The notes: generated by a model from the sequence alone, not told the origin. Positions 4,009-63,132 are shown, counted from the first letter of the stretch. The stretch: 64,000 nucleotides of DNA from a virus (IMGVR_UViG_3300028374_000002:96001-160000); one strand, 5' to 3'. Numbers and translations are program-made.

Positions 4009-5793
4009 ATGATGAAAGATAATTACTATGTTTATGCACTATTAGATTCGTCTAAACCTGGTGACTATGCTTATAAAAATATAACTTTCAATTATGAACC
4101 CTTTTACATAGGTAAGGGGATTGGTAATAGAATAAAAGAAACACTACATGATAAATCCCCCTTTAAAAGAAACAAGATATCAAAGCTCAAAGAAGAAGGT
4201 ATTGAGATTATAAGTTTTAAAATAAAAATAGAATTATCTAACGAAGATGCTATTCTGTATGAAAAGGAATATATTAAGGTTATTGGAAGAAGAGACAAAT
4301 CAGCTGGTACATTAATAAATTTAACTGATGGTGGTGATGGTAGGCTTAGTAGTAAACCTTCTCAAATAACAAAAAATAAAATATCAAAAACCTATTTAGC
4401 TAAGAATCTAAAGTGGAATCATAAAAAAGAAATTTTAAACAAAATGTCAGACATGCAAAAGGGAAAGGGAAATGGTTTTTATGGCAAGAAACATAGTGAA
4501 GAAACCAAAGACAACCATTCTAATTTAATAAGTGGAAATAACCACCCTATGTATGGAAAGACACATAGTGATGATGTAAAAGCTAAACTTAAAAAACACA
4601 GAGCAAATAAGGTTTCAAATGAGAGTATAAGAAAGGCTTGTCAAGTATTTAATAAAGAAGTTGAAATGTTTGACCTAGATATGAATTATATAAATCTATT
4701 TGATTCAGTCAAATCTGCATCACTAGAAACTAACATAAATGAGTCTATAATATCTAAGTGTTGCAGAGGCGATATCAAAGACCCCACTAGGTATTATTTT
4801 AAATATAAGAATGATTCTGACAATATTAAACAAAACAAGTTTCTGATAAATAAAAATGAGTATTTCTACTATAAAAAAGAAAAGTATAAGCTTGTAAAAA
4901 GAAACAAAAAAACATGTATCTGCCTTGATAGTGATAACCAAGAGATAGTTATACATATAAAAGATTTTAAATATATATTCGAAAAGGCAGAAAACAACTC
5001 AAATATAACTGAACTATTTATGTTTATTAGAAGCATGGACAATACTGCAATATTATTAAATGATGTCATAACATCTAAAAAATTAAAGATAAAATATTGT
5101 GATATCATAAAATATAGCGAAATATTTAGCTCAGATAAAATGACCAAGGAAGACTTTGATGTTATAATATTCAGCGATGAGTGGAAAGATAAAAAAGAAA
5201 TAATAAAATATAGATTAATTAACTTGTATGGGAAGTCTAAAAAAATTGGTGCAAGGAAATGTGATATACGAGAAATAAAGGACAATAGTCTAATTAGAAC
5301 ATTTTTAAACGATAACCATCTACAAGGATTTGTTGGATCTAAAGTAAAGATAGGATTATTCTATGAGGATGAATTAGTATCGCTTATAACATTTGGTTCT
5401 CTTAGAAAGAATTTAGGACAGAAGAGCAAAAAAGACTATTATGAACTTCTTAGGTTCTGTAACAAAAGAGGATTTTCTATAATGGGTGGTGCATCAAAAT
5501 TATTTAAGTATTTTTTAAAAAAATACAATCCCAAGTATATTCTAAGCTATGCTGACTATCGTTGGAGCGAGGGTAATTTATACAAAAAGTTAAATTTCAA
5601 GTATTTAAACAAAACAATATCAAATTACTTCTATATAATAGATTATAATAGAAAGAATAGGTTCAACTTTAGAAAAGACATATTAGTTTCGAATGGGTAT
5701 GATATAAATAAAACTGAAGTTGATATAATGCACGAACAACACCATTATAGAATATGGGATATAGGATCACTAAAATTTACTTATGAAAGATAA
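4009..5793 (+). CDS. GIY-YIG endonuclease + NUMOD3-like motifs + C-terminal Mom-like GNAT domain
   Basis: YYVYALLD...PFYIGKG; HSEETK-type motifs; C-terminal NHLQG / IGLFYEDELVSLITFG / YELLRF / SYAD..GNLYKKLNF. Confidence 0.8.
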   Translation: MMKDNYYVYALLDSSKPGDYAYKNITFNYEPFYIGKGIGNRIKETLHDKSPFKRNKISKLKEEGIEIISFKIKIELSNEDAILYEKEYIKVIGRRDKSAGTLINLTDGGDGRLSSKPSQITKNKISKTYLAKNLKWNHKKEILNKMSDMQKGKGNGFYGKKHSEETKDNHSNLISGNNHPMYGKTHSDDVKAKLKKHRANKVSNESIRKACQVFNKEVEMFDLDMNYINLFDSVKSASLETNINESIISKCCRGDIKDPTRYYFKYKNDSDNIKQNKFLINKNEYFYYKKEKYKLVKRNKKTCICLDSDNQEIVIHIKDFKYIFEKAENNSNITELFMFIRSMDNTAILLNDVITSKKLKIKYCDIIKYSEIFSSDKMTKEDFDVIIFSDEWKDKKEIIKYRLINLYGKSKKIGARKCDIREIKDNSLIRTFLNDNHLQGFVGSKVKIGLFYEDELVSLITFGSLRKNLGQKSKKDYYELLRFCNKRGFSIMGGASKLFKYFLKKYNPKYILSYADYRWSEGNLYKKLNFKYLNKTISNYFYIIDYNRKNRFNFRKDILVSNGYDINKTEVDIMHEQHHYRIWDIGSLKFTYER

Positions 5794-6475
5794 TATAATA
5801 AAACATGAAGCTTTTTACAATATTGTTCAGAAAGATTTTGGACAATACTTCTCAATGATGGCATCTGCTGGTAATTTTTCAAATATTTGTAAACAAATAA
5901 GCTTAATTAGTAAATCTTCATTAGAGTATGGATATAGTGATTTAGAAATAGAAGAAGCTCTAAAACTAGGTACTATGAAGTTTGCAGGGGATTTATTTGA
6001 AATATTTGCAGAGGTGTTCTTCATAATTTACGGCAAAGACAATAGAATAGGTGTATATGACTACTTACCAGTACCAGCAGAAGATGATAATGGGGTAGAC
6101 GGATATGGTAAGAATATTGAAGGTGGTCCATGTACTGTACAAGTAAAGTTTAGAAATAATCCAACGTATGAACTCAAAGAGAGAGATGTAAAACAATTTG
6201 GTCTTAAAAGCATAACAGATTTCAATGTTGACTATGCTAGGAAAGACTCTATGGTTATATTTACAAACTGTGCAGGTCTCCACTGGTATACAAACTCACA
6301 AGTATTCAATGGTCTTTACCGAATAATAAATCAAGAATCTATATGTAAGCTAATTGATAACAACCAAGCATTTTGGGATTCATATGAAGAGGTTGTTTAT
6401 GAAAGCATAAAAAGTATGGAAACTGATAGACTAACTGAGATGTATTCCAAAAAGAATTATAGCTATAAAATATGA
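5783..6475 (+). CDS. Mrr-like PD-(D/E)xK restriction endonuclease domain protein
   Basis: LFEIFAE...DDNGVDG...VQVK arrangement typical of Mrr-type nucleases; overlaps both neighbouring genes. Confidence 0.6.
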   Translation: MKDNIIKHEAFYNIVQKDFGQYFSMMASAGNFSNICKQISLISKSSLEYGYSDLEIEEALKLGTMKFAGDLFEIFAEVFFIIYGKDNRIGVYDYLPVPAEDDNGVDGYGKNIEGGPCTVQVKFRNNPTYELKERDVKQFGLKSITDFNVDYARKDSMVIFTNCAGLHWYTNSQVFNGLYRIINQESICKLIDNNQAFWDSYEEVVYESIKSMETDRLTEMYSKKNYSYKI

Positions 6476-8148
6476 GAGATATAAAAGAAATACTATTAAC
6501 ACTTAATGATGACCAAAGGGAAATGTTTAAACTCTTACAGAATAATACAAGACACCAATTCAGAGTACCTACTGGTGTTGGAAAGGGTTATGTTATGATT
6601 TTGCACATACTTTGGAGGTTGATAAAGACAAGAGATACAAAAGTTGCAATAGCAAGCCATCGTCTTAGTTTAAATAACCAACACCTAAAGGATTTGATAG
6701 ACTTTTTTTGTGAGTTAAAACTAATAGGCAAAGTAAAGTTTCTAACAGTTGGATCTATGTCGCTTGATATTAATAAAGTCTTACAAAAAGATAAAGTACT
6801 AGCTAGAAATTTTAATAACTCACTATTCGATTATAATACAACACAAGATATAAGTTCTAGGCTTACAGTAGATAGAATATTTAGATCATCTTTAAGCACA
6901 GGAGAGATAAATCAGATAGTTAGAGATAATGACTATAATGGCTTTAAAACAGTTATTATATCAACCTATAATAGCCTTAATAAATTAAAAGACATAGACC
7001 TAGATATTATATATTGTGACGAGGCTCATATATTAGCATCTGAAAAAGAAGACTCTGATTTTAAAAAGTCCTATGAAATAATAAATACTAAGAGGCGTTT
7101 CTTCTTCACTGCCACTCCAAAAGATGTTGACAAGGAACTTATAAAAGAGGATGAGTCATCAGAAATATTCCTAATGAACAACAAGGACATATTTGGTGAC
7201 ATCTACCAAGTTCCTTTCAAAAAATGTATTCAGAAATCATATATATCAACGCCAATTATACATATATCACTACCTTCCGAGATATTGGAGGATAAAAACT
7301 ACGACTCTATTGAAAATAAATCTAAGTTTGTAAAAGATACATTCAAATCACATAAAGAATGGTTAAAGAAGAATTCTAACGAACCAAAAACCATATCACC
7401 CAAAATATTAATTAGGTGTGAGTCTGTACCCAGAATGTGGGATATGCATAAAGTACTAACTGAAATTATGCCTGATGTCACTATATGTGCTGGTGCATCA
7501 TACAACAAAGATAAAGAATGCAACCATGCTATAAATAATGAATGGATTAAGAGTAGAGATGAATTTGTGGATAAGATACAAAAGATAAAAGATGATGAAA
7601 AAGTAATTATACTACAGTATGATATATTTAGCGAAGGTATAAATGTACCAGGTATAACTGGTGTTATGTTTTTACAAGGCAAAATGCCAACTAGGGCAAA
7701 AATAATACAAAACGTTGGTCGTTCTACTAGACTTCATAAAATGGATAGAAGTAATATCAGAAAAGGCTTGATAAATAATAATGATTTGTCTAAATGGGTA
7801 AAGCCATACTGTGCAGTAATTCTACCATATTGGGATAGTAGAAGTGAATTTACTAAAGACCAACTTGCTTTTACTATACAAGATATGAGAGATAGGTGGG
7901 GATTTGATCCTAGATTTGAAGTTTCAATAGGAGAAGATATGGCAGAGTCAGAACTAGTCTACCAAGACGATGGACTAAACCGACTTGATAGGAAAAATAA
8001 AAAAGCCTATTTTATAGAATCCATTTTACATAAGATAGAAATTATTGACAAACAAACTAACGAATCTAAGAAACGTGCTTTATTAAATTCTCTATCGCCA
8101 ATAGAATTACTTAAACAAAATAGGATATCTAACTATAAAAACAAATAA
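6472..8148 (+). CDS. SF2 helicase/ATPase (Type III Res / Type ISP-like)
   Basis: PTGVGKG (variant Walker A), CDEAH, FTATP, SEGINVP, QNVGRSTR; ATGA overlap with the upstream nuclease. Confidence 0.8.
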   Translation: MRDIKEILLTLNDDQREMFKLLQNNTRHQFRVPTGVGKGYVMILHILWRLIKTRDTKVAIASHRLSLNNQHLKDLIDFFCELKLIGKVKFLTVGSMSLDINKVLQKDKVLARNFNNSLFDYNTTQDISSRLTVDRIFRSSLSTGEINQIVRDNDYNGFKTVIISTYNSLNKLKDIDLDIIYCDEAHILASEKEDSDFKKSYEIINTKRRFFFTATPKDVDKELIKEDESSEIFLMNNKDIFGDIYQVPFKKCIQKSYISTPIIHISLPSEILEDKNYDSIENKSKFVKDTFKSHKEWLKKNSNEPKTISPKILIRCESVPRMWDMHKVLTEIMPDVTICAGASYNKDKECNHAINNEWIKSRDEFVDKIQKIKDDEKVIILQYDIFSEGINVPGITGVMFLQGKMPTRAKIIQNVGRSTRLHKMDRSNIRKGLINNNDLSKWVKPYCAVILPYWDSRSEFTKDQLAFTIQDMRDRWGFDPRFEVSIGEDMAESELVYQDDGLNRLDRKNKKAYFIESILHKIEIIDKQTNESKKRALLNSLSPIELLKQNRISNYKNK

Positions 8149-8160
8149 ACAAATAAACAA

Positions 8161-9783
8161 ATGATATTAGATATTAAAAACACACATAGTGAAGATTTTA
8201 GATGTTCCTCAGATGTTTACCAAAGTTACTTACTTTCTAGACAATCATCTTTATTTATTACATGTATAGAAGATGTTGCATTAGATAGATTTTCTGATGA
8301 TATAGAATTAAATGACTATATAAAGACACAAGACGTTGTAGATAAAAGACATGGTATTCTAAGCACTCTAGGCGATGATAGATATAAATGGTCATTAATA
8401 AATAATATCTCGTATGAGAAAACATCAATAATAGAAAAGTTAGATAAAATATATAATATATTATCTTCTTATATTCATATTTCAGACCTAGAGAAAAGGA
8501 TAGATACAAAAGTAGTAACACCTTTAGATAAGCTAGGTATACCTATGATTGATATGGTAAGCAGATACAATAATTCATTTTGGGAAAATCCATATCATAA
8601 AATACTAGATCCATGTGGTGGTAGTGGTAGTCTGCTTATACTAGCTATAAAGAAATTTATGGAAGGTCTAAAAAATATTATTACAAACGAGAGAGATAGG
8701 TTTAAATGGATTATTGAAAACTGTATATATTTTGGGGATAAAGATTTAAAAACATGTTTTGTCTGGCTCTGTTGTGTTGATATAAAAAGTGAATATAGAC
8801 TAAATATTTATTGGGGAGATTTTATAGATGATAACTTCGAATACCATATGGAAGAAGTTTGGAGAATAAAAAGGTTTGATCTTATAATACAAGACCCACC
8901 GTTTAAAAAAGTAAACGAAAAGACAGACTCATTTAAAGATGTTTATCATAACTTTATAGAAAAAGCAACCACTATATCAAAACTATCTACTAGTACATCA
9001 CCTGGTAAGTGGCTTGGTAAAGTTGGTAGAAGTGATTTTAGAAATAGAATGATAAATAAGCTTGGTCTTAGAGAAATATACAAAGTAGATGATAACAAGG
9101 TATTTGAAGACTTTGATTTAAAAGGGGGTGCAATTATTTCTATGATTGATAGTGAAAGTAATCCAAAAGATGATGTGCTTGTAAATGGTGAGTATGTTGA
9201 TTTGTCTAAATATGATATAATACCAAATGATACTTCTAAGAATTCATTCTTAATAATAGAAAAAGTAATAAATAAAAAAAATATAACATATAGGTTAAAT
9301 TCTGAAATACATTTTGGAATAATAACTAATGATAAGAGGTTGTATCACGTAGGGCAGTACAAATGCCACGTTTCTAGGTATAAGGGTAATATTAAATATA
9401 TATCAGGTGTTGATGTTCGTTTAAAGAAGATTGGTAGATGGAAGTTACTTCTACCTGCAACTAGTAAAAAAGGAGGAATGGATCAAGAATTTTATAACCG
9501 AAGCGTGATAGCTAAACCAGGAGAAATTTGTAGTCAATCATTTACATTCTTTGATTTTGATACAGAAGAAGAATTATTGGTTTTTAAGAAATACTTAGAA
9601 TCAGATATATTCTCTTACTTAGTAAGACTTCGTAAAATAAAGCAACACATAAACTCAAAGGTTTTTATGTGGGTCCCAGATATAAATATTAAAGAAATAA
9701 TAAAAGATGGGAAAGAACTAGACAATAACTATTTTAGAGACTTACTTGACATACCAAGAGATATAGATTTAAGTTTAAAATAA
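8161..9783 (+). CDS. Amino-methyltransferase with C-terminal target-recognition region (Eco57I-like)
   Basis: Motif I ILDPCGGSGSL, motif IV variant IIQDPPF, C-terminal TRD-like WKLLLP...PGEICSQSF. Confidence 0.7.
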   Translation: MILDIKNTHSEDFRCSSDVYQSYLLSRQSSLFITCIEDVALDRFSDDIELNDYIKTQDVVDKRHGILSTLGDDRYKWSLINNISYEKTSIIEKLDKIYNILSSYIHISDLEKRIDTKVVTPLDKLGIPMIDMVSRYNNSFWENPYHKILDPCGGSGSLLILAIKKFMEGLKNIITNERDRFKWIIENCIYFGDKDLKTCFVWLCCVDIKSEYRLNIYWGDFIDDNFEYHMEEVWRIKRFDLIIQDPPFKKVNEKTDSFKDVYHNFIEKATTISKLSTSTSPGKWLGKVGRSDFRNRMINKLGLREIYKVDDNKVFEDFDLKGGAIISMIDSESNPKDDVLVNGEYVDLSKYDIIPNDTSKNSFLIIEKVINKKNITYRLNSEIHFGIITNDKRLYHVGQYKCHVSRYKGNIKYISGVDVRLKKIGRWKLLLPATSKKGGMDQEFYNRSVIAKPGEICSQSFTFFDFDTEEELLVFKKYLESDIFSYLVRLRKIKQHINSKVFMWVPDINIKEIIKDGKELDNNYFRDLLDIPRDIDLSLK

Positions 9784-9840
9784 TAGATAAAATAATAAAC
9801 TAAATAATTTACATAACTATAAATATAAATAATAAAAAAT

Positions 9841-11502: not shown

Positions 11503-11527
11503 AAAATGCCCTTAGAGGGCATTTTTT
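11501..11527. terminator. Bidirectional terminator
   Basis: AAAAAATGCCC-TTAGA-GGGCATTTTTT between convergent genes. Confidence 0.85.
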
Positions 11528-43518: not shown

Positions 43519-45222
43519 TTAGTTTAATAATCCATTCTCGTCTGTAATTCTCAAAGTCATAAATTGCTTTTGTGGGAACCAGCCTACTTCAGCTACTGCG
43601 TATCTTGAACGTAATAACATTCTAGGTGCAAAGGTAGCTTCCGAGATAACACTAATTGATTGTGCCATTAAGTAAGGTACAAATATGATACCTGGTTGGT
43701 CAGGATTGTTCTTTCTACCTAGAGCAATTCTGTTGTCGTTATACTTCATATATGGATCAACATATATTGATATATCCCCGATAGAACCTACTGGGTAAAG
43801 TTGTCCAGCTCCGTTTAGTTTAGATTTTACTGGGTTAAGAGTATAACCTGAAACATCCGATAAAGCTGCTGCTAAACCACCGTTAGTAACTAAATACTGT
43901 GCTGGTCCAACACGTCCTTCTGTTGCAATGTAGTTAGATGCATGCATTATCTTTGTGATAAGCTTTCTTTGCACAGCGTGAGTTGTCTCACCACCTACGT
44001 TAGCACCTGCATAGTTCGTGTTTAAATCGAACAAAGGCACTCCTGTACCTCCTCCTGGTGGTGTTCTTAATGGTGCAGACTCTCTGTTAAGTTCTCCCAT
44101 TTCAAATACTTTAGCAACAATTTGCTTAGATATTGTTTGAGAAAGTTCATTAACAAGAATGCTTTCCATTTTTTGAACGATATCCATACCAGTGTTGGCT
44201 TTGATATCTTCAATTTCAGTTCTTCTAAGTGCTGATGTTATCTCGATAGTACCAACGGCAATTGTTTTAGAAGAAATTTTCGGCCCAATGATACCTGCGT
44301 ATCTCTTGTCATCTTGCTCTCTATCCATTGGATAGTTTCCAGAAAAACCATTTTCACTTGTATTCCAGTTTGCAGAAAAACCTGGTAATTGGTCTTCAAG
44401 TGCAGAAATAAGTTCAACTTTTGCACCAGATACTGTTACACCAGCAACATTAACTAATTGATCAGTCATTGCAGTTGTTGAATCAAAAGTGTTTCTTGTT
44501 TGGTCAAATGCCCATGTAGTTCCAGCAGTTCCAACAGCACCATGAGATGTGTTAAATTGTCTGTAAGCTCTAAACATTGGGAATCCATCAATACGTGAAA
44601 ATCCTAAAAATTCTACTTGTCCTGTTTTATCAGATGCTTCTGTTGTAGTGATACCAGTATCTGGAGCGGTTTGTGCTGCGATATCATTGAAAAGCGTTCC
44701 GTTTTGTAAACCACCTTGTGATTCTACAATACCAGCAGTATTTAGTTGCTCCTTAAGTGCAGCTCTAACATCTGCGATATTATCAGCATTAAGTTTAAAA
44801 ACTTGTGGTCTTTCGTCAGAAGCACCTAAATGTGCATCATCATATCTAAAATCTACGTAAAGTAAATCGATTTTTGGTCCAGGAGAAGGCTTTACTGCAA
44901 CAAGGTCTAAACCTATTGTTTGTGCAGCAATCTTCATAGCTACTGGAAGTAAGTTTTGGCCTACATCTCCAGATCCCTGTGATCCACCGTTTTGTCCAAA
45001 AGCATTACCGATTGTTGAACCAGATAATGTTGATGGCTGTGCAGCTACAACACCTCCCATACCTGATACGTTAGATGCGTTTGCGTAAGCGTTTTCATTA
45101 ATTGAGTGGAATTCTGCGTACTCGCTCATCCAGTCAATTCTGTCGCCAGAAACACCCATGTTCTCTAGAACTGGTGTCCACTTCTTCTTGGCTTTTTGAT
45201 TGTCTATTCTAATGTGTGACAT
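43519..45222 (-). CDS. gp23: Major capsid protein (T4 gp23-like)
   Basis: KKWTPVLE, DLVAVKP..GP, EDIKA..G.D, EL...I...I, GI..VPY, RYA. Confidence 0.88.
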   Translation of the reverse strand: MSHIRIDNQKAKKKWTPVLENMGVSGDRIDWMSEYAEFHSINENAYANASNVSGMGGVVAAQPSTLSGSTIGNAFGQNGGSQGSGDVGQNLLPVAMKIAAQTIGLDLVAVKPSPGPKIDLLYVDFRYDDAHLGASDERPQVFKLNADNIADVRAALKEQLNTAGIVESQGGLQNGTLFNDIAAQTAPDTGITTTEASDKTGQVEFLGFSRIDGFPMFRAYRQFNTSHGAVGTAGTTWAFDQTRNTFDSTTAMTDQLVNVAGVTVSGAKVELISALEDQLPGFSANWNTSENGFSGNYPMDREQDDKRYAGIIGPKISSKTIAVGTIEITSALRRTEIEDIKANTGMDIVQKMESILVNELSQTISKQIVAKVFEMGELNRESAPLRTPPGGGTGVPLFDLNTNYAGANVGGETTHAVQRKLITKIMHASNYIATEGRVGPAQYLVTNGGLAAALSDVSGYTLNPVKSKLNGAGQLYPVGSIGDISIYVDPYMKYNDNRIALGRKNNPDQPGIIFVPYLMAQSISVISEATFAPRMLLRSRYAVAEVGWFPQKQFMTLRITDENGLLN

Positions 45223-47518: not shown

Positions 47519-47591
47519 CGATTGTCGGATTTTTTAGTTAATTTTGAGAACTTTCACCGAATTTAATATATATACTAAAATAGTTACCCAT

Positions 47592-51966: not shown

Positions 51967-53838
51967 ATGGAAAATAATAAAAAAGAAGGTGTTATAAACT
52001 TCTCAGTGAATGGGAATGCATCAATAGAAATTGATAAAACTAAGATATACATACACAAAAGCAAGACTTTAAATGCTTTAAATAAGGATTTAGTGAGTGT
52101 AAATGTTTATAAAAATAAATCAAGGCAAGAAGCTGAAGTAATCGAGGTATTAAAGAGAAATAGGAAAACATTTGTAGGTAAGGCAAGAGTAGGGAAAAAG
52201 ACTATTTTTGTAGTTGCTGATGATAATAAAACACCTGTTGACTTCTATATAAAGGGTGGTTTAACTTGTAAAAATGGACAGAAGGTAATAGTAGAGTTTA
52301 CTAAATGGAATGATGGTAAATCACCACAAGGGAAGATAATTGAGATATTGGGAGACTCTGGTGAAAATAATGCAGAAATGAACTCAATAATGCATGATTA
52401 TAATCTACCAGTAGAGTTTCCTAGAGATGTTGAGAAGGAAGCATCCAAAATCCCAAAGGAAATATCAATGAAAGATATTAGCGAAAGGAGAGATATGAGG
52501 GGAATTAAGACATTCACTATTGATCCAAAGAGTGCCAAGGATTTTGATGATGCACTTTCAGTTAAGAATATTGAAAGTGGTTTAATAGAAGTAGGTATTC
52601 ATATAGCAGATGTTGGACATTATGTAAAGGACGGAACTTTACTAAATGATGAGGCTATTAAAAGAGCAACATCGGTATATCTCGTTGATAGAGTTATACC
52701 AATGCTACCAGAGGTTTTAAGTAATGACATATGTTCTTTGAAGCCACATGTAGATAGATTAGCATTTTCTGTAATCTTAACTATAAATGAGGATGGTAAG
52801 ATATTAAAAGAATGGTTTGGTAAGACAATAATAAATTCAGATAATAGATTTACATATGCAGAAGCACAAAGTATAATAGAGGGAGATAGCCATGTATTAG
52901 ATTACGAAGTTAGGATATTAGACACAATTGCAAGGAAAATAAGAAAGAAAAGAATTGGAGAAGGTTCAATAGAAATGGGTGGTGTAGAAATACAATTTAA
53001 GTTAGCACCAGATAATAAAAAACCAATAGGTGTTTATTATAAGGTACAGAAAGAGGCTAATAAGCTTATAGAGGAATATATGTTACTAGCCAACAAAGCA
53101 GTTGCTAAGAAGCTATCAAATGCACAAAGAACAGGTGTTTATAGAGTACACAACACTCCTTCTATTGAGAAACTTAATGCACTAGCAGATATATGTGAAA
53201 GTTTTGGCTATAGTGTAGACTTAGAGAAAACTTCTAATGATTTAAAAAAGGAGTTGAATAAATTACTAATAGAGATAAAAGACCAACCAGAAGAAAATAT
53301 GATACAGACACTAGTAACTAGGTCTATGTCTAAGGCATATTATACTATAAAGAATATTGGACATTATGGGTTAGGATTTTCACACTACTCACATTTTACA
53401 TCTCCAATAAGAAGATACCCTGATCTTATAACACATAGGCTATTGTTAGGCTTATTAGAGAATAAGCCTAAGTCTAATCCTCTATCTATTGAAGAAGATG
53501 CAGAGTGGTGTTCACAAAGAGAAATAATAGCATCTAAGGCTCAGAGGGATTCTATAAAATACAAGCAAGTTGAATTTCTAATGGACAAGATTGGACAAAT
53601 ATTCCAAGGTGTCATCACTGGTGTTACTGACTGGGGCATATATGTAGAATTAACAGATAATAAATGCGAGGGTATGATAGCACCAAATGATTTAGGAGAT
53701 GGTAAGTGGAGAATAGATACTAAGAAATATACAGGTGATAATAAACTAGGTGATAAACTATCACTGGGTGATGAAATTACAATTGTTGTAGATAATGTGG
53801 ACTTGGATAAGAAACAGATAAACTTTAAAAAGTTTTAA
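51967..53838 (+). CDS. rnr: Ribonuclease R
   Basis: FTIDP.SAKDFDDALS, HIADV, TSVYL, IEEYMLLAN, HFTSPIRRYPDL, C-terminal S1 domain. Confidence 0.95.
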   Translation: MENNKKEGVINFSVNGNASIEIDKTKIYIHKSKTLNALNKDLVSVNVYKNKSRQEAEVIEVLKRNRKTFVGKARVGKKTIFVVADDNKTPVDFYIKGGLTCKNGQKVIVEFTKWNDGKSPQGKIIEILGDSGENNAEMNSIMHDYNLPVEFPRDVEKEASKIPKEISMKDISERRDMRGIKTFTIDPKSAKDFDDALSVKNIESGLIEVGIHIADVGHYVKDGTLLNDEAIKRATSVYLVDRVIPMLPEVLSNDICSLKPHVDRLAFSVILTINEDGKILKEWFGKTIINSDNRFTYAEAQSIIEGDSHVLDYEVRILDTIARKIRKKRIGEGSIEMGGVEIQFKLAPDNKKPIGVYYKVQKEANKLIEEYMLLANKAVAKKLSNAQRTGVYRVHNTPSIEKLNALADICESFGYSVDLEKTSNDLKKELNKLLIEIKDQPEENMIQTLVTRSMSKAYYTIKNIGHYGLGFSHYSHFTSPIRRYPDLITHRLLLGLLENKPKSNPLSIEEDAEWCSQREIIASKAQRDSIKYKQVEFLMDKIGQIFQGVITGVTDWGIYVELTDNKCEGMIAPNDLGDGKWRIDTKKYTGDNKLGDKLSLGDEITIVVDNVDLDKKQINFKKF

Positions 53839-53893: not shown

Positions 53894-53918
53894 ATTTTTG
53901 TACCAATCCATAATTATT

Positions 53919-55613
53919 TTAGAACTCAAACTCATCACCACCACCAGTATCTGGACTTGGATCATCTGTGCCACCAATATCTAAATCATCACCACCGTCA
54001 TCTATTGCAGAGTCGTCTGTGTCACCTGGTCCACCATCCATGGGAGCACCTCCCTCACCTTCGAAACCTTCAACACCAACTGCCGAACCCGCACCTTTAT
54101 TATTATCTCTAGCCCAGTATCTTTCATTCTCTGCTTTCTCTTCTGGTGTTAATTTAAACACATTGTCCATAATCCATTCTATATGAAAGTATGGCTGTTC
54201 TTCATTTCTCATAACCCCTAATAAGCTACTAACAACATCTGCCTTTTTAGACATATTATTTATCTTCTTCCAGTCCTCAAATGTTTGATTGCTATAGAAG
54301 TATATGTCTATTTGGTTTATAAAGTTTTCATCATCAGTAAGTTCTGGGAATTCTATAAGCAGTTGTAACCTCACTGGTTTGACAATCATTTCTTTAAAAT
54401 TCGCTCTAAGTCTACTAATAAAGTTATGAAATTTTATCTCATCTCTGGTCATATCTGATGCATCGGTAAATAAATTACCACCACCATTTTCAGACTCGAA
54501 TCTCTGTACAGGTATTTTAGAAGCTCTTTTGAGTGCTCTGTAAAACCAATTTAACATAGTTTCATCATTTAAATCATGACCTTCTTGCTTAACAAGTTCC
54601 ATATTAGGAGTACCTGCATCACCCTCTGGGAACCATATTTGTTTATTATAATGCAATTGTTTAGAACCATTCATAGATAATGTTCCTAAATCATCATCCC
54701 ATTCTACGTCTTCTGAATAGTCATGTATTAATTGTCCTATTTGTTCTTCTGCTCTTTGTCTAGACATTCCCTTAATAGGAACTGTAAATTTTTGATAAAC
54801 TTGAGCATTTAATACGTTAAACATTATTCTTGTCTGTTCAAGTATTTTAAGTTGGTTATATGGTTTTATAAGACCCTCCACATAAGAAGTTTCTGAATAA
54901 TCATTTTGTGTAGAATATGATATATAAACTATCTGTGAATCTAGAAATATTCTTCTTAACTGTGGATCTTCTGGATATTGTATCCATAAGTGTCCAACAT
55001 TAGGTTCATAAGCAGGTACTAATGTATCTGGTCTTAATCCATTAAATCCAATAATATTCTTCTTTTTATCATCAAAGATTATTTCTGATGCTAAATAGCC
55101 ATCGATTAAGAAATCTTTCATCATATTCCACGCAGTAATATTGTCAGAAAATCCATACTTAGTATAAACTTTTTTGAAATATTCTAGATATTTATCTTGT
55201 ATCTCTTGTGAATATTCATTTGAAAGTGATCTTGCTGAACAAAAATCACTTTCATCGTTATATACTATACATTCATCACACACAGAAGATACAAAATCTC
55301 TTATATCATCCTTTATAGAATACTCTCTAAGTATTCTTCTTTTATCAGCATATGATTTGTCAAGATACGGAATAGATTTTCTACTTAATACAGATGATAC
55401 GGCCCTTTGGCTGAAGAAATCATACATTGAATTCCCCTTTGATGAATAAGGATCTTCATTGATTCCTATACCTACTTGGTTTCTTATAATCATATCATTA
55501 TAATTCATTCCATAATTTGAAAGATTTCTAAGTATTTTACTAAAGATTCCTTTATTCTCTATTGCTGAATTTGCAGTACCAAAATCTGAACTAGTAGTAT
55601 TATATGTTGCCAT
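53919..55613 (-). CDS. gp20: Portal protein (T4 gp20-like)
   Basis: DECIVY, FLIDG, SYVE..IKPYNQL..LE....FNV, WFP..G, FYRAL..ASKIP..R, TRDEIKF..FI.RLR. Confidence 0.88.
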   Translation of the reverse strand: MATYNTTSSDFGTANSAIENKGIFSKILRNLSNYGMNYNDMIIRNQVGIGINEDPYSSKGNSMYDFFSQRAVSSVLSRKSIPYLDKSYADKRRILREYSIKDDIRDFVSSVCDECIVYNDESDFCSARSLSNEYSQEIQDKYLEYFKKVYTKYGFSDNITAWNMMKDFLIDGYLASEIIFDDKKKNIIGFNGLRPDTLVPAYEPNVGHLWIQYPEDPQLRRIFLDSQIVYISYSTQNDYSETSYVEGLIKPYNQLKILEQTRIMFNVLNAQVYQKFTVPIKGMSRQRAEEQIGQLIHDYSEDVEWDDDLGTLSMNGSKQLHYNKQIWFPEGDAGTPNMELVKQEGHDLNDETMLNWFYRALKRASKIPVQRFESENGGGNLFTDASDMTRDEIKFHNFISRLRANFKEMIVKPVRLQLLIEFPELTDDENFINQIDIYFYSNQTFEDWKKINNMSKKADVVSSLLGVMRNEEQPYFHIEWIMDNVFKLTPEEKAENERYWARDNNKGAGSAVGVEGFEGEGGAPMDGGPGDTDDSAIDDGGDDLDIGGTDDPSPDTGGGDEFEF

Positions 55614-55679
55614 TTATGATTTGTATTTACATTATATATTAAGTTACAAACCTCCCATTAATCGCTTGATTAGCAAGGG

Positions 55680-56366: not shown

Positions 56367-56413
56367 AGTATATATATTATTTTAGAAAAAGAACATTTCT
56401 TAATATATACAAT

Positions 56414-56935
56414 ATGTTAAACTCAAAACCAAATAACAAAAAGTATCACCAAGGTAATTATAGACCTAAGAATAGAGATAAGATAGTTAAAATGAATTCA
56501 GAAGGTGGTGTCTATTTCAGAAGTGGTCTAGAACAAAGATTTATGGTTTACTTAGACATGAATGATAATGTTAAGAAATGGGGTGCAGAATGTTTGAAGA
56601 TAAGCTACCAAAAAATGAATCCAAGTTCTGGTGCTTTAAAACAACATACTTACTACCCAGATTTCTACTATGAACTAAGAGGTAGTGATGGTGTTTTAAA
56701 ACAAGTAGTTGTTGAAGTTAAGCCTATGAAAGAGTACAGAAATGTACAAATGCTTATGGAGAATAAGCTAAAAGTACCAGAAAATGGCTTAAAGAAGTTG
56801 AGGAATTTTGAATACGACCTAAAAATGGCACATACAAACAGAAGCAAGTGGGAGGCAATGATAAAGTGGTGTGATAAAAAAGGTTATAAGTTTATAATAA
56901 TAACAGAAGAGCATCTAAAGCAGTATGGCGTTTAA
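56414..56935 (+). CDS. gp4: Head completion nuclease (T4 gp4-like)
   Basis: YRPKN.DK, RSGLE..F, YYPDF, VEVKP, KWEA...W...G.KF.I.TE. Confidence 0.85.
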   Translation: MLNSKPNNKKYHQGNYRPKNRDKIVKMNSEGGVYFRSGLEQRFMVYLDMNDNVKKWGAECLKISYQKMNPSSGALKQHTYYPDFYYELRGSDGVLKQVVVEVKPMKEYRNVQMLMENKLKVPENGLKKLRNFEYDLKMAHTNRSKWEAMIKWCDKKGYKFIIITEEHLKQYGV

Positions 56936-57207: not shown

Positions 57208-57250
57208 ATATTATTATTTGTGATTATTATATATGAATTAATTTAAATGT

Positions 57251-59035
57251 TTAACTTTTATATAGCCATTTTTCTTGACCAGTCGAAAATATTCTATAAT
57301 AACCCCTTTCGTTCATTATTTCTAACTCAGTCTTATCTTTATCAAATCCTTGTTTTACTAGCTTTCTTTTAGAGTAATTATATCTGTGTATTCTTTTCCC
57401 ATTTATAACCCAAAAATAATTAGGTTTAGATAATGTATCAAAAACAAAACCTAACTTTTTATAGACACCACCACCAAATAATGATATGTCGGCATATGAT
57501 ATTAAATATTCAAACTTAGTATTGTCTACGAAATACTTAAATAGTTTAGAAGCACCACCAATAACACTAGTATTTAATTCATTACAAAACCTAATTAATT
57601 CATATTCTTTTTTATTGTTTGTTCTCCTCCATCCGAATGTCATTAAACTAACTAACTCATCATTAAAATATAATCCTAAGTTTATTGAAGAAGATGCATA
57701 TCCTTGTATATGATTATTGTTTAGAAATAATTTATAATCTTTGGTATTGACCTCTCTTATATCACATTTTCTAGCATATATTCTATTATTTACTTTACCC
57801 AATCTATTCCTTATGATTGATTTTATTATTTCTTTCTTGCTATCCCAGTCGTCCTCCCATATATGTAGCAGAGATATCCCCTCTTCATTGCACTTATTTG
57901 TTTTACTGATATGATAATCACTACTTTTGAATAGTTCAGAGTGCCAGTATATGCCGTTACACTCAATAGCTATATTATATTCTGGTATGTATATATCAAT
58001 CTCCTTACCTTTTAGTATTTTTTTATCATTTTTTATATAGCCAATTCCTAGACTCTCTATAAAAGAACCAACTTGTGTTTCGAAGTTAGAATATAATACA
58101 CCAACTGGGTTGCATTGTGTACATATCATCTTACATGAGTTAAACCTTGCTCTTAATAAACCTTTGTTTATATCAAAGGTATTATTACATTCTTTATGTA
58201 TTAATGAGAATGTCTCATTTTTATATGAATTAAGTATATACTTATCTGATATTAGTTCTGCATATCTTTTAAATGTTTTTCTCTGTTTAGTATTCTTTGC
58301 CTTTAACTTAAAATTTTCATTCTTAGAAGGATGCTCACCCCAGTTTGAAAAATTTGTAGATTTTACCTTCTCTTTATATTCTATAGTTTTTGAATAATTA
58401 CTAACACCCCATTTCTCTATAGAAGTTTCTTTTATTTTGTCTTTATAGTAGTCTGATTTGGATATCCAATCTACACCATATTTATCATTAAATGATTTTC
58501 TTGATTTGGATATAGTCGATTTACTTTGCATAGACCAGTCTACACCTAAGTTCTTTTGATTAGTTTCTTTTATTTTGTTAATAACGCCAATAGACTTAGA
58601 AGGATTAGTAACACCATACCTATCTAAAGATGTTTGTACGAACTTATCCTTCCATTCTTTCGTCTTAGAATAGTGGGAAACATTATATTTGTCTAGAAGG
58701 CTTTTCTTAAGAGTTTGTTTAACTTCTTCTGATTGCATTGGATTTTTAACACCATACTTTTTAAGAGAAGTCTTTTCAGATTTTATCTTTTTACAAGAGT
58801 TGCAATAATATATCCCACTTAGACCATTCGTGTAATTCCAGTAGTCTTTAAAGCCATTAGAGACTTCTTTGTTACAGTTTTGGCATATACATGTAATCTT
58901 AGATGAAGTTCCCTTAGACAAGTGTTCTACGCTTATATCTATATATTTACCAACACTAATATCATATCCAAATGATTTGTAATATTTTATATTCCTAGAG
59001 TGACCCTTTATCTTTATCTTTTTTTCTTTTATCAT
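57251..59035 (-). CDS. Hef-like endonuclease with 23-aa repeats + Vsr-like nuclease + Mom-like GNAT
   Basis: 7 repeats; EIDIYIPE..IAIECNGIYWHS; NHIQG..YELIRF..SYAD. Confidence 0.8.
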   Translation of the reverse strand: MIKEKKIKIKGHSRNIKYYKSFGYDISVGKYIDISVEHLSKGTSSKITCICQNCNKEVSNGFKDYWNYTNGLSGIYYCNSCKKIKSEKTSLKKYGVKNPMQSEEVKQTLKKSLLDKYNVSHYSKTKEWKDKFVQTSLDRYGVTNPSKSIGVINKIKETNQKNLGVDWSMQSKSTISKSRKSFNDKYGVDWISKSDYYKDKIKETSIEKWGVSNYSKTIEYKEKVKSTNFSNWGEHPSKNENFKLKAKNTKQRKTFKRYAELISDKYILNSYKNETFSLIHKECNNTFDINKGLLRARFNSCKMICTQCNPVGVLYSNFETQVGSFIESLGIGYIKNDKKILKGKEIDIYIPEYNIAIECNGIYWHSELFKSSDYHISKTNKCNEEGISLLHIWEDDWDSKKEIIKSIIRNRLGKVNNRIYARKCDIREVNTKDYKLFLNNNHIQGYASSSINLGLYFNDELVSLMTFGWRRTNNKKEYELIRFCNELNTSVIGGASKLFKYFVDNTKFEYLISYADISLFGGGVYKKLGFVFDTLSKPNYFWVINGKRIHRYNYSKRKLVKQGFDKDKTELEIMNERGYYRIFSTGQEKWLYKS

Positions 59036-59092
59036 TATATGTTATATCTATATATCTAAAAGAGTTGTTGCTAAAGGGTGTGAAAATATAAA

Positions 59093-59458
59093 TTATAGAG
59101 AATGAATACCATTACCATCGTTAGAACCCTCTATTGATAGTACCTTTATTAGATTATCACCATCGCCTTTCTTTTTATAGAGTTCATTAAATCCCTTAGC
59201 TAACCCTCGTTTAAATATTTCTGTGAAGTATGCAAAGGCATTTACTGACTTAGCTTCGTTAAAGTTATACCAATTTTGGTACATGTCTAAAACGCCTGAT
59301 TGGTAGCAATCCATTTTATCATCATTTGACCAGTACCTCATTTTCTTAATGGTTTTATTTCCTAGTAATTCTAGCATCTTCTCAGCCTTTCTAGTAAGCT
59401 TACCTCTTGCTTTTGATACTATTATTTCTACATATAGTTCTTTGTTGTTTAAATACAT
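59093..59458 (-). CDS. gp55: Late-transcription sigma factor (T4 gp55-like)
   Basis: YLNNKEL...YNFNEAKSVNAFAYFTEI. Confidence 0.8.
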   Translation of the reverse strand: MYLNNKELYVEIIVSKARGKLTRKAEKMLELLGNKTIKKMRYWSNDDKMDCYQSGVLDMYQNWYNFNEAKSVNAFAYFTEIFKRGLAKGFNELYKKKGDGDNLIKVLSIEGSNDGNGIHSL

Positions 59459-60370
59459 TTATGTTCTATTATTTTTATATATATTATATATATTTTTATC
59501 AATAAGTTTTAACTTTTCATTAACAGATTCGTCATATTTGATTATTAATAGATTTATTCTATTATTTGCACAAAATTCTTGTTTTATCTTATCTTTTTTT
59601 CTATTATATTCCAAATTTTTAACACCACCAAAGTATTTTACTGGCTTATAGTGTTGTTCACCATTATATTCAATACAAATATTGTATTTTGGTATATAGA
59701 AATCAAATCTTAAAGGAAGCTTATTTACACAACCATTAAAGGATTTTTGAAATTCATATAATATTTTATTTTTGTCTAGAAAAATACTTATCATACTCTC
59801 CCCCTTTGACTTATTACAGTCTGGGCATCCATTCATGCTATATAAGTGATTATCAGGTCTTTGGCTAAAAATGCCATGCTTAACACATATTATATCAACA
59901 TGTGTTTTGTTATTTGTATAATTAACATTAGAATAATCCCATTTATGTTCTCCCCATATACTTTTAGAACTATCTATAAAGTCAGCTTGTAGTTTTGCCC
60001 TTTTACATACATCACAATCTTTTTCTTGGTTTAGATGTTGTTTAGGATAAATTTGAAAATAAGTACCATGACTTCGGCAACCTATTGTTAATTTACTCCT
60101 AGAACACTTGTACAAAGTTTTTGAATAATCCCATTTATGTTCTCCCCATACTCTCTTAGACTCTTGTATGAATTTATCTGTTGTCTTTACTTTTGTAGAG
60201 CATAATGGACACAGGTTGCCTTTTCTTATTTGTTTTAAGTTTCTAGAAAATTTAGTTTTGTGTTTATTGCAGACTATAATGGATTTAGTTGTATTGTTAG
60301 TATATTCGAAATATGAAAAATTATAATTAATTAGTTCTGTAACTTCTTCATAAAAGTTTGCTTTTTTCAT
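59459..60370 (-). CDS. Zinc-repeat + Vsr/DUF559-like endonuclease
   Basis: WDYS...I.C..HG.F...HL...C..C modules; LRFDFY..CIEYNGEQHY. Confidence 0.8.
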   Translation of the reverse strand: MKKANFYEEVTELINYNFSYFEYTNNTTKSIIVCNKHKTKFSRNLKQIRKGNLCPLCSTKVKTTDKFIQESKRVWGEHKWDYSKTLYKCSRSKLTIGCRSHGTYFQIYPKQHLNQEKDCDVCKRAKLQADFIDSSKSIWGEHKWDYSNVNYTNNKTHVDIICVKHGIFSQRPDNHLYSMNGCPDCNKSKGESMISIFLDKNKILYEFQKSFNGCVNKLPLRFDFYIPKYNICIEYNGEQHYKPVKYFGGVKNLEYNRKKDKIKQEFCANNRINLLIIKYDESVNEKLKLIDKNIYNIYKNNRT

Positions 60371-60431
60371 ATAGGCTATATATTAAGTTAAATATGTAAC
60401 AAATAATTGGTGATAAGTAGTTTATTTTTAT

Positions 60432-60439
60432 TATATTTG
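60432..60439 (+). promoter_or_regulatory. Bacteroidota-type -7 promoter element TAnnTTTG
   Basis: TATATTTG 15 nt before the ATG. Confidence 0.45.
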
Positions 60440-60454
60440 TATAAAACTTAAAAT

Positions 60455-61366
60455 ATGAAAAAAGCATTTATATTTATAGGGTTGCCATTGTCAGGTAAAT
60501 CTATGTATATTGAATCTAGAAAGAAAAAAGACTGGATTGGTATTAAGGTTGTATCTGCTGATAATATAAAGCTAACACACCCTGACTATAATCACAACGT
60601 CCCAGAACATGTGCATTTGTGGAGTACAAAAATGGCAGAGGAAGAGATAATTACTCTAGCTAAACAAGGGTTGTCTAAGATTGTTATGGATGGTGGTGGT
60701 ATTAACAATAGCTATACCATCAGAATAATTAATATGCTTAAGGACAATGGGTATAAAACAGAATTAATTCATATCAAAACCCCTTTACAAGTATGTCTTA
60801 GCAGAAATGAAAAACGTGAGAGGAAAGTACCACACATTGATATAATAAGAAAAGCAGCCAAAGAGAATATACAATTTAATAGAATATCAGAAATTTGTGA
60901 TATTTCAACTGTTGTTAATCACTTTTCTAATAAAAACATATTTGTAGATATGGATGGTGTTATAGCTGGATTATCTTTACTACCTACATATGAGGACAAA
61001 GTAGATTTTGTTAATAATGAAATATTCAAAACGCTATTACCAGTAAACCCCGTAATTGATAAACTAGAAAAATTAAAAGAAGAAGGAAGAAATATCTATA
61101 TATTATCAGCAATTCCAAATTCACTTTCGTATATAGATAAAAATGAGTGGTTAGATAAGCATTTCAACATAGACAAGGATAAGAGATTTTTTGTAAATTC
61201 GGGTAGGCACAAAGCAGAGATGTTAGATAATCTTAGATTAAAGTTAAAGCTAGAGAAAAGGGATGTATGTCTTATAGAAGACACACACTCTACTCTAGAA
61301 AAAGTAAGAGATTATGATATGAATCCTATACACGTATCAGAATTTCTCACAGATGGTTTTGTATAA
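60455..61366 (+). CDS. Polynucleotide kinase-like P-loop domain fused to a HAD phosphatase
   Basis: GLPLSGKS, DGG.I, R...ER; HAD motif VDMDGV, ILSA, LIED. Confidence 0.75.
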   Translation: MKKAFIFIGLPLSGKSMYIESRKKKDWIGIKVVSADNIKLTHPDYNHNVPEHVHLWSTKMAEEEIITLAKQGLSKIVMDGGGINNSYTIRIINMLKDNGYKTELIHIKTPLQVCLSRNEKRERKVPHIDIIRKAAKENIQFNRISEICDISTVVNHFSNKNIFVDMDGVIAGLSLLPTYEDKVDFVNNEIFKTLLPVNPVIDKLEKLKEEGRNIYILSAIPNSLSYIDKNEWLDKHFNIDKDKRFFVNSGRHKAEMLDNLRLKLKLEKRDVCLIEDTHSTLEKVRDYDMNPIHVSEFLTDGFV

Positions 61367-61400
61367 CAAAAAAGCTCTTGAATAACAAGAGCTTTTTAAT
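61365..61400. terminator. Bidirectional terminator, copy 1 of a direct repeat
   Basis: AAAAAGCTCTTG-AATAA-CAAGAGCTTTTT. Confidence 0.85.
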
Positions 61401-63132
61401 ATTTTTTCTCAAATTTTATTTTACCACAGTCCCATATCTTCTTATAGTTATTATCTTTCATAAATTTACTTTCTGTTAGATTTGTATTTAAATTAGATTT
61501 TTTATAATTTGACTTATGTATTCTCTTACAACCAACGATATATTTATAGTCTGGTTTTGTTTCTTTAATTTTCACAAATCCTAAGTTTTTATATAGACCA
61601 CCATCAGACCAGTCGCTATCAGCATAACTTATTAATCTTTTGGGACTGTGATTTTTAACGAAATAACTCAATAATTTACTAGCACCTCCAATTACAGAAG
61701 TATTCTTTTTATTACAGAATCTGTTAAGATTCCACTCATCACTCATCATTCTTTTTCTACCTTCTAAATGATCAAAGGTCATTATACTAACCAATTCTTC
61801 ATTGTGGTACAGTCCCAATTTTAGTGAGGATTTTGCTCTTCCCTGTATATGATTTTTGTCTAAGAAATTAGTTACAATCTTCGTATTTTTTATTTCTTTT
61901 ATAACACATTTTCTAGCACCTATTTTATTACTTATACTCAACCAGTTACATATTTGTGATTTTAGTATTTCTATATTATTTACCCAATCATCTTCCCATA
62001 TATGTATTATTCTGATTCCTTTATCAAGAAAATATTTACTCTTATCATAGTGATAGTTTTTTTCTTTATATTCTTCTGAATGCCAGTATAATCCATTAAA
62101 TTCAAAACCTATATTAAGTTCTGGTAAGTAAACATCTATTTCTAAACCATCTCTATAAGATTTTATTATAGAACCATTATATTTAGAAGTTATATATTCT
62201 AGTAGTTCTTTCTCTTTTATTGATTGTGAACTGCTTATGGGATAACATGTAGTACAAAGTGGTAGGTTAGACCTTGACCTTTTTAAATAATTATCTATAT
62301 GTATTTTATAATCATGTTCTTTGTAACACCTCATCAAAGAGATACCATTATCAATATACTTAATGTAATTATCATCACTAGATATTGAGAACTTTCCTGG
62401 TCTGAATATATCAGATTTCATAATATTATCAGAATCCCATTTATTAGACATAGTCTTTTTATTTTTTATCTTAAAATCATCAGATAGTAAATAGTTAGAT
62501 TGACCATACCTATCCTTATTAGTCTTATTAACACTTTGTCTAACACTTTCTAACATTGAAGGATTTTCAACACCATATTTTCTTATGTTTGTAGTCCTTG
62601 ATTTATCTCTTACTTTTTTTGACATCATTGGATACTCGACACCATGATTTTTAAGACAAGTTTCTTTAAATTTATTTTTAAAATGCTTTGATTTAGATAT
62701 ATGGTCTACTCCATACTTATCAATTAATGTTTGGGATGACTTTTTTCTTATTTTTTTTGATTGTTGTAAGTATTCAACACCATATTTTTCTATATTGGTC
62801 TTTTTAACGCTTTCTTGTATTTCTTTTAGCATCATAGGATGGTCTACACCGTATTTTTTTATACTAGTTTCTTTAGCCTTTAGAGATCCACACTTCATAC
62901 AACAGGCATACTTACTACCATTTGATATATTTCTAAAATACTCTTTTATCTGTATATTGACTTCCTTGTTACAAAAATCACAAGATACATCCACATCGAG
63001 TCTTGATCCCTTGGATATATGTTCTATTTTTATTTCTATTTCATCTTTATGAACTTCATACCCAAGTGATTTATAATATTTTATCTTTCTACACCCTTTG
63101 GTCTTTATTGTTATGGTCTTTTTTATTATCAT
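61396..63132 (-). CDS. Hef-like endonuclease with 23-aa repeats + Vsr-like nuclease + Mom-like GNAT
   Basis: 7 repeats; EIDVYLPE..GFEFNGLYWHS; NHIQG..NLNRF..SYAD. Confidence 0.8.
   Translation of the reverse strand: MIIKKTITIKTKGCRKIKYYKSLGYEVHKDEIEIKIEHISKGSRLDVDVSCDFCNKEVNIQIKEYFRNISNGSKYACCMKCGSLKAKETSIKKYGVDHPMMLKEIQESVKKTNIEKYGVEYLQQSKKIRKKSSQTLIDKYGVDHISKSKHFKNKFKETCLKNHGVEYPMMSKKVRDKSRTTNIRKYGVENPSMLESVRQSVNKTNKDRYGQSNYLLSDDFKIKNKKTMSNKWDSDNIMKSDIFRPGKFSISSDDNYIKYIDNGISLMRCYKEHDYKIHIDNYLKRSRSNLPLCTTCYPISSSQSIKEKELLEYITSKYNGSIIKSYRDGLEIDVYLPELNIGFEFNGLYWHSEEYKEKNYHYDKSKYFLDKGIRIIHIWEDDWVNNIEILKSQICNWLSISNKIGARKCVIKEIKNTKIVTNFLDKNHIQGRAKSSLKLGLYHNEELVSIMTFDHLEGRKRMMSDEWNLNRFCNKKNTSVIGGASKLLSYFVKNHSPKRLISYADSDWSDGGLYKNLGFVKIKETKPDYKYIVGCKRIHKSNYKKSNLNTNLTESKFMKDNNYKKIWDCGKIKFEKKY

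Follow-up and report, generated by a model that had tools for sequence, protein, structure and literature searches.

A 64,000-nucleotide stretch of viral DNA (bases 96001-160000 of the 201-kb contig IMGVR_UViG_3300028374_000002, estimated to be 28% complete; here called the window) carries six genes which a reading of the sequence alone had proposed to be endonucleases fused to a DNA-modifying domain like the Mom protein of phage Mu. In all probability, these are homing endonuclease genes of the Hef type that carry a domain of the Mom family. They are new sequences of a known and very abundant family, and they add no new principle to it.

The source of the six genes is an uncultured huge phage. 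The G+C content is about 29% across the whole window, which contains T4-like structural and replication genes, including those for the major capsid protein Gp23 (43519-45222) and the portal protein Gp20 (53919-55613), and a family B DNA polymerase (polB) fragment at 2402-3970. Protein searches against a phage collection gave uncultured megaphages of 635-735 kb as the nearest relatives. The capsid, portal and polB proteins of two of these, LR745206.1 and LR756502.1, are 72-80% identical to those of the window, and the Lak phages are more distant. A megablast search of 5 kb against the phage collection found no near relative.

Six genes with a common C-terminal domain

All six open reading frames (ORFs) proved to be open between the coordinates listed here. 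For P0003, the start may be a TTG at 47544, giving 532 amino acids (aa), or an ATG at 47592.

P0001: 4009-5793, plus strand, 594 aa; GIY-YIG domain, NUMOD3/NUMOD1, decayed Vsr-like remnant and Mom-like GNAT domain
Mom-like GNAT domain of P0001: 5221-5787, plus strand; profile match G000:C1:101221-101787
P0002: 40638-42533, minus strand, 631 aa; DUF7487 repeats, zinc ribbon, Vsr-like nuclease and Mom-like domain
Mom-like GNAT domain of P0002: 40647-41204, minus strand; profile match, Glu at the equivalent of Asp149
P0003: 47544/47592-49142, plus strand; zinc ribbons, Vsr-like nuclease and Mom-like domain
Mom-like GNAT domain of P0003: 48546-49136, plus strand; Ser at the equivalent of Asp149, with an Asp at +2
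P0004: 49146-50759, plus strand, 537 aa; Hef-type homing endonuclease gene, in tandem with P0003 and 3 nucleotides downstream of it
Mom-like GNAT domain of P0004: 50250-50702, plus strand; profile match to model positions 1-155 only
P0005: 57251-59035, minus strand, 594 aa; DUF7487 repeats, zinc ribbon, Vsr-like nuclease and Mom-like domain
Mom-like GNAT domain of P0005: 57257-57823, minus strand; profile match, the copy used for modelling
P0006: 61396-63132, minus strand, 578 aa; Hef-type homing endonuclease gene
Mom-like GNAT domain of P0006: 61405-61962, minus strand; profile match

The last 175-195 residues of the six proteins align with each other, with 29 invariant columns and pairwise identities of 42-49%. 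The motifs by which the sequence-only reading had recognized a common domain (ARKC, FL..NH(L/I)QG, GL...ELVS, RFC, GGASKL, S(Y/F)AD and G.LY..LGF) are all present in this alignment. It had also been claimed that five of the six ORFs code for a Vsr-like nuclease upstream of the domain, and this was confirmed; the remaining one, P0001, has a GIY-YIG domain and NUMOD3/NUMOD1.

In the five proteins with the Vsr-like nuclease, DUF7487 'KYGV' repeats and/or zinc ribbons come first, followed by the nuclease and then by the Mom-like domain. DUF7487 scores 135.8 bits for P0002, 94.8 bits for P0004 and 105.4 bits for P0006, and the Pfam matches of P0005 are DUF7487, Mom (27.8 bits), MTES_1575 and Vsr. 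The protein family phrog_3339, annotated as 'homing endonuclease', spans most of these five proteins with E-values between 1e-107 and 1e-124 (P0002, 1.8e-117; P0003, 1.6e-108; P0004, 1.1e-107; P0005, 3.1e-124; P0006, 3.6e-114), and on P0001 it covers the C-terminal 200 residues. When the profile search was extended from the window to the whole 201-kb contig, the number of such ORFs rose from six to 11. All 11 copies of the domain lie within long open frames and none of them stands alone.

The C-terminal domain is related to Mom

Three independent routes, namely Pfam, profile-profile comparison and the fold of a structural model, establish that the domain is truly related to Mom. They bear out the earlier claim that it has a GNAT/Mom fold. 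The motifs given for Mu Mom in support of that claim (KHYS, LGVF.G..LVG, ELNRM and SFADERCG..GVVYQASNF) can all be found in the Mu record, and each block aligns with its counterpart in the domain.

When the six domains were analysed in isolation, Mom (PF25680) was the only Pfam family that matched. Four of the six gave a match, two of them above the curated cut-off of 27.1 bits (P0001, 31.3; P0005, 31.7) and two below it (P0006, 26.4; P0003, 21.6). The isolated domains of P0002 and P0004 had no match to Pfam Mom; that of P0002 aligns with the other five copies. An hhalign comparison of 47 family members with 24 Mom proteins gave a probability of 92.7% and an E-value of 4e-7 over 131 columns (Mom residues 39-188). 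Identity to Mom is only about 16-18%, and shallower comparisons did not reveal the relationship. A single-sequence phmmer search of the domain against the PDB sequences did not find Mom, a profile of the six sequences returned only noise and weak GNATs, and hhalign gave only a weak result (probability 1%) when the six were compared with Mu Mom as a single sequence. Only deeper alignments on both sides, and the fold, made the homology clear.

The AlphaFold2 model of the P0005 domain has a predicted local distance difference test score (pLDDT) of 94.6, and the modelled fold is beyond doubt that of a GNAT. In Foldseek, the best matches are the two chains of the Mu Mom crystal structure (8bv8_A/B, E-values 1e-8 and 1.6e-7), and the next GNAT follows at 2.9e-5. 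By VIA-align, Mom scores no better (Z 12.3) than ordinary N-acetyltransferases (about 13). The aligned span is longest for Mom, with 159 residues (Mom 36-221) against 123-143 for the others, and takes in the helical insertion behind the GNAT core. Mom is thus the nearest known relative by sequence and by Foldseek.

The active site compared with that of Mu Mom

According to a structure paper from 2026, the active site of Mu Mom is formed by H58, Y59, R111, S124, D149, R151 and Y159 (PMC13219725). R111, numbered R101 in a paper from 2020, is specific to Mom and not general to GNATs (PMC7261163), and it is required for Mom activity (PMC7261163; PMC13219725). We surveyed the corresponding positions in 156 sequences, comprising the six window copies and, from the database, the 150 best representatives (34-65% identity to P0005). 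The equivalents of H58, R111 and Y159 are His, Arg and Tyr in every one of the 156 sequences. The equivalent of S124 is Ser in 138 and that of D149 is Asp in 125; among the listed exceptions, over a dozen have Asn, Ser or Lys in the Asp149 column and an Asp at +2. Across the family, five of the seven active-site residues of Mom are thus retained, Tyr59 and Arg151 being the exceptions.

The window copies keep the equivalents of H58, R111, S124, D149 and Y159 with two substitutions at D149, to Glu in P0002 and to Ser in P0003. The residue count of the sequence-only reading was exact in this respect: the His is invariant and the Asp of the SxAD motif is found in four copies. In P0003, which had been described as having lost the Asp, there is an Asp two residues further on. 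P0001 has the equivalents of H58, R111, S124, D149, R151 and Y159.

The loop between beta4 and alpha3 reads V-(I/V)-G-(G/S/A)-A-S-K-L, and its first Gly is present in 156 of the 156 sequences. It is similar to the (Q/R)-x-x-G-x-(G/A) pyrophosphate loop found in GNATs that use coenzyme A (CoA), whereas the Mom family has P-R-N-x-E-S at this place. As judged from these conservation patterns, the pocket appears to us to be under strong purifying selection, which would favour a working enzyme. The site is apparently not a copy of that of Mu Mom, and the donor may differ.

The Vsr-like nuclease

A profile built from the nuclease domains of the five proteins matches 3r3p, the catalytic domain of I-Bth0305I, with an E-value of 1.7e-7. 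The positions of I-Bth0305I E170, D196, N208 and H213 do not vary among the five window copies, and these E, D, N and H positions are 79-96% conserved among the 156 sequences. D222 of I-Bth0305I, the last Asp of the EDxHD motif, aligns with an invariant His in the window nucleases. The Pfam matches to Vsr and MTES_1575 are weak (MTES_1575 on P0003, E-value 2.8e-5). Taylor et al. (2011) assigned the 'Hef type' phage endonucleases to the EDxHD homing family (PMC3239194).

In all but one of the 150 best database relatives, the nuclease adjoins the Mom-like domain. An AlphaFold2 model of the two domains together has a pLDDT of 92.6 and a predicted template modelling score (pTM) of 0.88, and it matches both 8bv8 and 3r3p in Foldseek (3r3p_B, template modelling score 0.76 by target). 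The high pTM suggests that nuclease and Mom-like domain have a fixed arrangement.

A GIY-YIG chimera

P0001 is the only one of the six in which a GIY-YIG catalytic domain is followed by NUMOD DNA-binding motifs. The 'YVY' and 'YIG' motifs are visible in its translation. NUMOD3 matches with 51.3 bits (cut-off 20.4), NUMOD1 with 19.2 bits and the LEM-3 GIY-YIG family PF22945 with 26.7 bits (cut-off 27), and there is a match to phrog_314 'homing endonuclease' with an E-value of 5e-14. Between the NUMOD region and the Mom-like domain, residues 334-409 represent a remnant of the Vsr-like nuclease (hhalign E-value 1.4e-4), which keeps the 'FSDEWKDKKEIIK' helix and from which the catalytic Asp, Asn and His are gone.

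A full-length counterpart of P0001, P0148, is 56% identical to it and is the sole one without the Vsr-like nuclease among the 150 best relatives. As such a counterpart exists, the GIY-YIG/Mom chimera is an established lineage. In both P0001 and P0148 the Mom pocket has been retained despite the decayed nuclease motif.

Insertion sites and mobility

All six genes are missing from the syntenic sites of LR745206.1 and LR756502.1, where the flanking genes are collinear with those of the window and code for proteins of 50-80% identity. At the site of P0001, the polB fragment directly precedes a gene for a DinG-like helicase in both relatives, and the window has 5.9 kb between them. At the site of P0002, the capsid gene of the relatives is followed by a homologue of 39812-40615, and there is no endonuclease gene. 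For P0005 and P0006, the flanking homologues of 56414-56935 and 63228-63908 are 2.4 kb apart in LR745206.1 and 3.1 kb in LR756502.1, compared to 6.3 kb in the window.

At the site of the tandem pair P0003/P0004, the relatives have only a short stretch between the RNase II gene and a gene coding for 712 aa; the RNase II gene is present in LR745206.1, and the LR756502.1 stretch showed no match to it. The short stretch (L002:18733-19149 in LR745206.1; L003:19437-19826 in LR756502.1) matches only the N-terminal 90-150 residues, the DUF7487 part, of P0004, P0005 and P0006. Either an endonuclease gene has been lost here and this stretch is what remains of it, or it codes for a DNA-binding protein that stands alone. 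The sole match of P0005 in LR745206.1 is such an N-terminal piece of 144 aa.

In a maximum-likelihood tree of the domain, the six copies belong to at least four lineages and are interleaved with proteins from elsewhere. P0005 is closer to database proteins (64-65% identity) than to its paralogues in the same genome (41-49%). The genes thus occur sporadically and at fixed sites beside conserved genes, as mobile elements do, and presence or absence site by site between conserved genes is the pattern of free-standing homing endonucleases.

Neighbouring genes

The block 4009-9783, which is absent from both relatives, contains P0001 and three further ORFs. One of them (5783-6475, 230 aa) matches only hypothetical proteins of Synechococcus phages. 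We considered whether it could be the C-terminal half of polB, split off by P0001, and ruled this out as it has no match in the relatives. The other two code for a ResIII/DEAD helicase (6472-8148) and an Eco57I-like N6-adenine DNA methylase (8161-9783). The block may represent a mobile island of a restriction-modification-like or modification type, moving together with the endonuclease gene. The polB ORF upstream of it (2402-3970, 522 aa) comprises the exonuclease domain and the first third of the polymerase domain and has the same end point in the relatives. As this ORF is incomplete, the rest must be encoded elsewhere, and polB is apparently a split gene in this group of phages.

P0005 and P0006 flank two ORFs, 59459-60370 and 60455-61366, the latter with matches to AAA_33/zeta-toxin-like kinases and to NT5C nucleotidases. 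The whole block of 6 kb (57251-63132) is missing from the relatives and thus is possibly cargo that was mobilised between two homing genes. The ORF that adjoins P0002 (42540-43400, 286 aa) codes for a DUF4379 treble-clef zinc finger. The relatives lack this ORF as well, and it may be one more mobile gene of the nuclease-associated kind. An exoribonuclease of the RNase II/R type is encoded at 51967-53838 (RNB domain, E-value 9e-110), and the ORF at 56414-56935, which codes for a TnsA-like endonuclease, is kept in both relatives.

Extent of the family and earlier work

Matches to the domain come from 17,186 clusters (at 50% identity), and those to P0005 from 436 phage records. Multiple copies occur in other genomes, with 10 places in LR756500.1, 8-9 in Lak phages and 11-12 in Campylobacter phages. 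Matching genes of Pseudomonas phage PA5oct and of a Bacillus phage are annotated as 'Hef-like homing endonuclease'; the one of PA5oct aligns with residues 120-592 of P0005.

Fusions of Mom with a restriction endonuclease (Mom-REase) were described in jumbo phages by Iyer et al. (2021; Viruses 13:63), who proposed that momylation would shield the phage while the nuclease acts against host DNA or that of a superinfecting phage, and who described five such enzymes in PA5oct (PMC7824862). The cut-and-protect idea of the sequence-only reading, including the 'recasting' of such genes as more than simple homing endonucleases, is therefore already in print as a prediction (PMC7824862). Its suggestion of acetyl-CoA and iron goes back to the 2020 model of Mom (PMC7261163). 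This differs from the work of 2026, in which Mu Mom binds tRNA, and Gly-tRNA(Gly) supplies the glycine that it attaches to adenine N6 before an isomerisation on the base (PMC13219725). Our literature search yielded no experiment in which the Mom-like domain of a Hef-type protein had been tested, and no paper that joins Hef-like proteins with acetyltransferases.

The fusions of Iyer et al. have the same architecture as the window proteins and also occur in several copies per large genome. What differs is that the window sequences are new and that in one copy the working nuclease has been swapped for GIY-YIG. Annotated Hef-like genes of T4-like phages, of ViI-like phages including LIMEstone, and of Campylobacter, Klebsiella and Acinetobacter phages match the nuclease-Mom unit with 30-49% identity. 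They share with the window genes the Vsr-like nuclease, the same C-terminal domain and a free-standing, sporadic occurrence. The window proteins have long N-terminal DUF7487/zinc-ribbon extensions, whereas many of the T4-like matches cover only the nuclease-Mom core of about 280 aa. According to a review, Hef of phage U5 cuts the nrdB gene, and the primary paper cited there (Sandegren et al. 2005) calls it a homing endonuclease in its title (PMC2988022). A likeness to U5 Hef itself is presumed from this review and title.

With Mu Mom (8bv8, PF25680), the family shares the GNAT fold, the helical insertion behind the core and the equivalents of H58, R111, S124, D149 and Y159. It differs by the glycine-rich beta4-alpha3 loop in place of P-R-N-x-E-S. 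Mu Mom is a tight dimer, and its dimer residue W48 is not kept in the family. Also unlike Mom of Mu, the domain never stands alone here, and no com-like regulator was seen. The nuclease is homologous to that of I-Bth0305I, where it is C-terminal, whereas here it is internal and precedes the Mom-like domain; the gene of I-Bth0305I is intron-encoded and those of the window are free-standing. Type IIG and other fused restriction-modification enzymes also combine a nuclease and a DNA-modifying domain in one chain, a likeness by architecture only. Their modifier is a methyltransferase dependent on S-adenosylmethionine, whereas the one found here is predicted to be a GNAT-type acyl or aminoacyl transferase domain, and the gene context is that of homing elements and not of defence islands.

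Possible functions of the Mom-like domain

The reading that we prefer, at slightly less than an even chance, is that these are Hef-type homing genes whose Mom-like domain is a working DNA adenine transferase which marks the enzyme's own site. The N-terminal modules would locate the site in the genome of a phage that does not have the gene, the nuclease would cut it, and recombinational repair would copy the gene in. The Mom-like domain would add an acyl or aminoacyl group to adenine N6 at or near its own site, and the marked carrier genome would escape cutting, as in a fused restriction-modification enzyme. The donor might be Gly-tRNA(Gly), as it is for Mu Mom; acyl-CoA is possible for this family because it keeps the glycine-rich loop (V-x-G-x-A-S) typical of CoA-dependent GNATs, unlike Mu Mom. 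That the domain, as an active adenine-N6 transferase with acyl-CoA as its possible donor, gives each homing endonuclease immunity to its own cut, so that a single chain forms a minimal restriction-modification unit, we regard as doubtful.

Several observations weigh against a marking transferase. A free-standing homing endonuclease ordinarily has no need of modification, as the target sequence is absent from its own genome. The nuclease-Mom unit was not found in LR745206.1, the close relative of 635 kb, so that the mark must be dispensable for the phage lineage. The Y59 column always holds Ile, Leu or Val (47 aligned sequences). In the R151 column, 71 of the 156 sequences have Ser, 43 Arg and 23 Asp, and only one of the six window copies (P0001) has Arg; in Mu Mom, the Ala variant of R151 has no detectable activity (PMC13219725). 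Deletion of the helical insertion also abolishes the activity of Mu Mom (PMC13219725), and P0004, in which 17 residues are missing, has lost most of this insertion and has all its nuclease residues intact. Furthermore, a strict protect-or-die coupling would predict that the integrity of the nuclease motifs and that of the Mom motifs are associated. They are not among the 156 sequences (75/35/34/12, odds ratio about 0.8), in which altered Mom motifs with intact nuclease motifs are common. This comparison is indecisive between the models because many 'losses' are conservative changes or may have been compensated.

Some of these observations would be accounted for if the Mom-like domain did not transfer anything and served to recognize or clamp DNA. 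It would then bind, and perhaps flip, the target adenine and position the nuclease, by analogy with the C-terminal DNA-binding domains of I-TevI or the Seg enzymes. The lack of conservation of Mu Mom R151 and Y59 and the frequency of altered Mom motifs beside an intact nuclease fit this explanation. The domain in P0001 occupies the place where GIY-YIG homing enzymes have their DNA-binding domains, it is coupled to the nuclease in 149 of 150 relatives and modelled with it as one body, and each of the 11 paralogues has a copy of its own, as expected if it aids the site choice of each enzyme. Still, pure binding is not expected to keep the loop Gly in 156 of 156 sequences, the Ser124 equivalent in 88% and the acidic residue in 80%, with several of the remaining 20% having an Asp at +2, and we consider a recognition module rather unlikely. 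It is improbable that the proteins are single-chain restriction-modification weapons, with a nuclease that hits host DNA or that of superinfecting phages and a momylation that protects the carrier genome as a whole. Such a role has been predicted (PMC7824862) and is compatible with the conserved active site and the high copy number (11 in 201 kb, 10 in LR756500.1, 8-9 in Lak phages, 11-12 in Campylobacter phages). However, one loosely specific Mom would be enough for a whole genome, which makes 11 diverged copies superfluous, and N-terminal arrays with so many repeats suggest that the sites are long and specific. The genes occur singly between conserved essential genes (polB, the major capsid gene, the portal region), and close relatives differ in having or lacking them at individual sites, as is characteristic of homing; in addition, the review credits U5 Hef with cleavage of nrdB (PMC2988022), and the Hef types have been placed in the EDxHD homing family (PMC3239194).

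The substrate of the GNAT domain might also be something other than DNA, such as an aminoacyl-tRNA, as for toxins of the TacT/AtaT type, or a protein, and its activity would then be separate from DNA cutting. Ordinary N-acetyltransferases score as high as Mom in the structural comparison (Z of about 13 versus 12.3), the CoA-type loop that is absent from Mom is kept, and Mu Mom itself binds tRNA (PMC13219725). Against this, Mom is the nearest relative by sequence, its specific Arg111 is invariant, and the obligatory fusion to modules that bind and cut DNA speaks for DNA as the substrate, so that we hold this explanation to be very improbable.

Significance

The nuclease-Mom unit is among the commonest types of selfish genes in large phages. 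If the marking transferase that we prefer is real, self-immunity based on modification could explain why 200 kb can hold as many as 11 copies and why the sequence clusters number more than 17,000. The 2026 result on Gly-tRNA and the crystal structure of Mu Mom make the function of the domain directly testable, and the window itself provides a set of natural variants, in which the Asp has been replaced by Glu or shifted by two residues, the insertion has been deleted, or the nuclease has been swapped for GIY-YIG. Should the domain modify DNA, self-recognition by means of modified bases would be common to homing endonucleases and restriction-modification systems, and hypermodified adenines would be present at specific sites in the DNA of phages from many environments.

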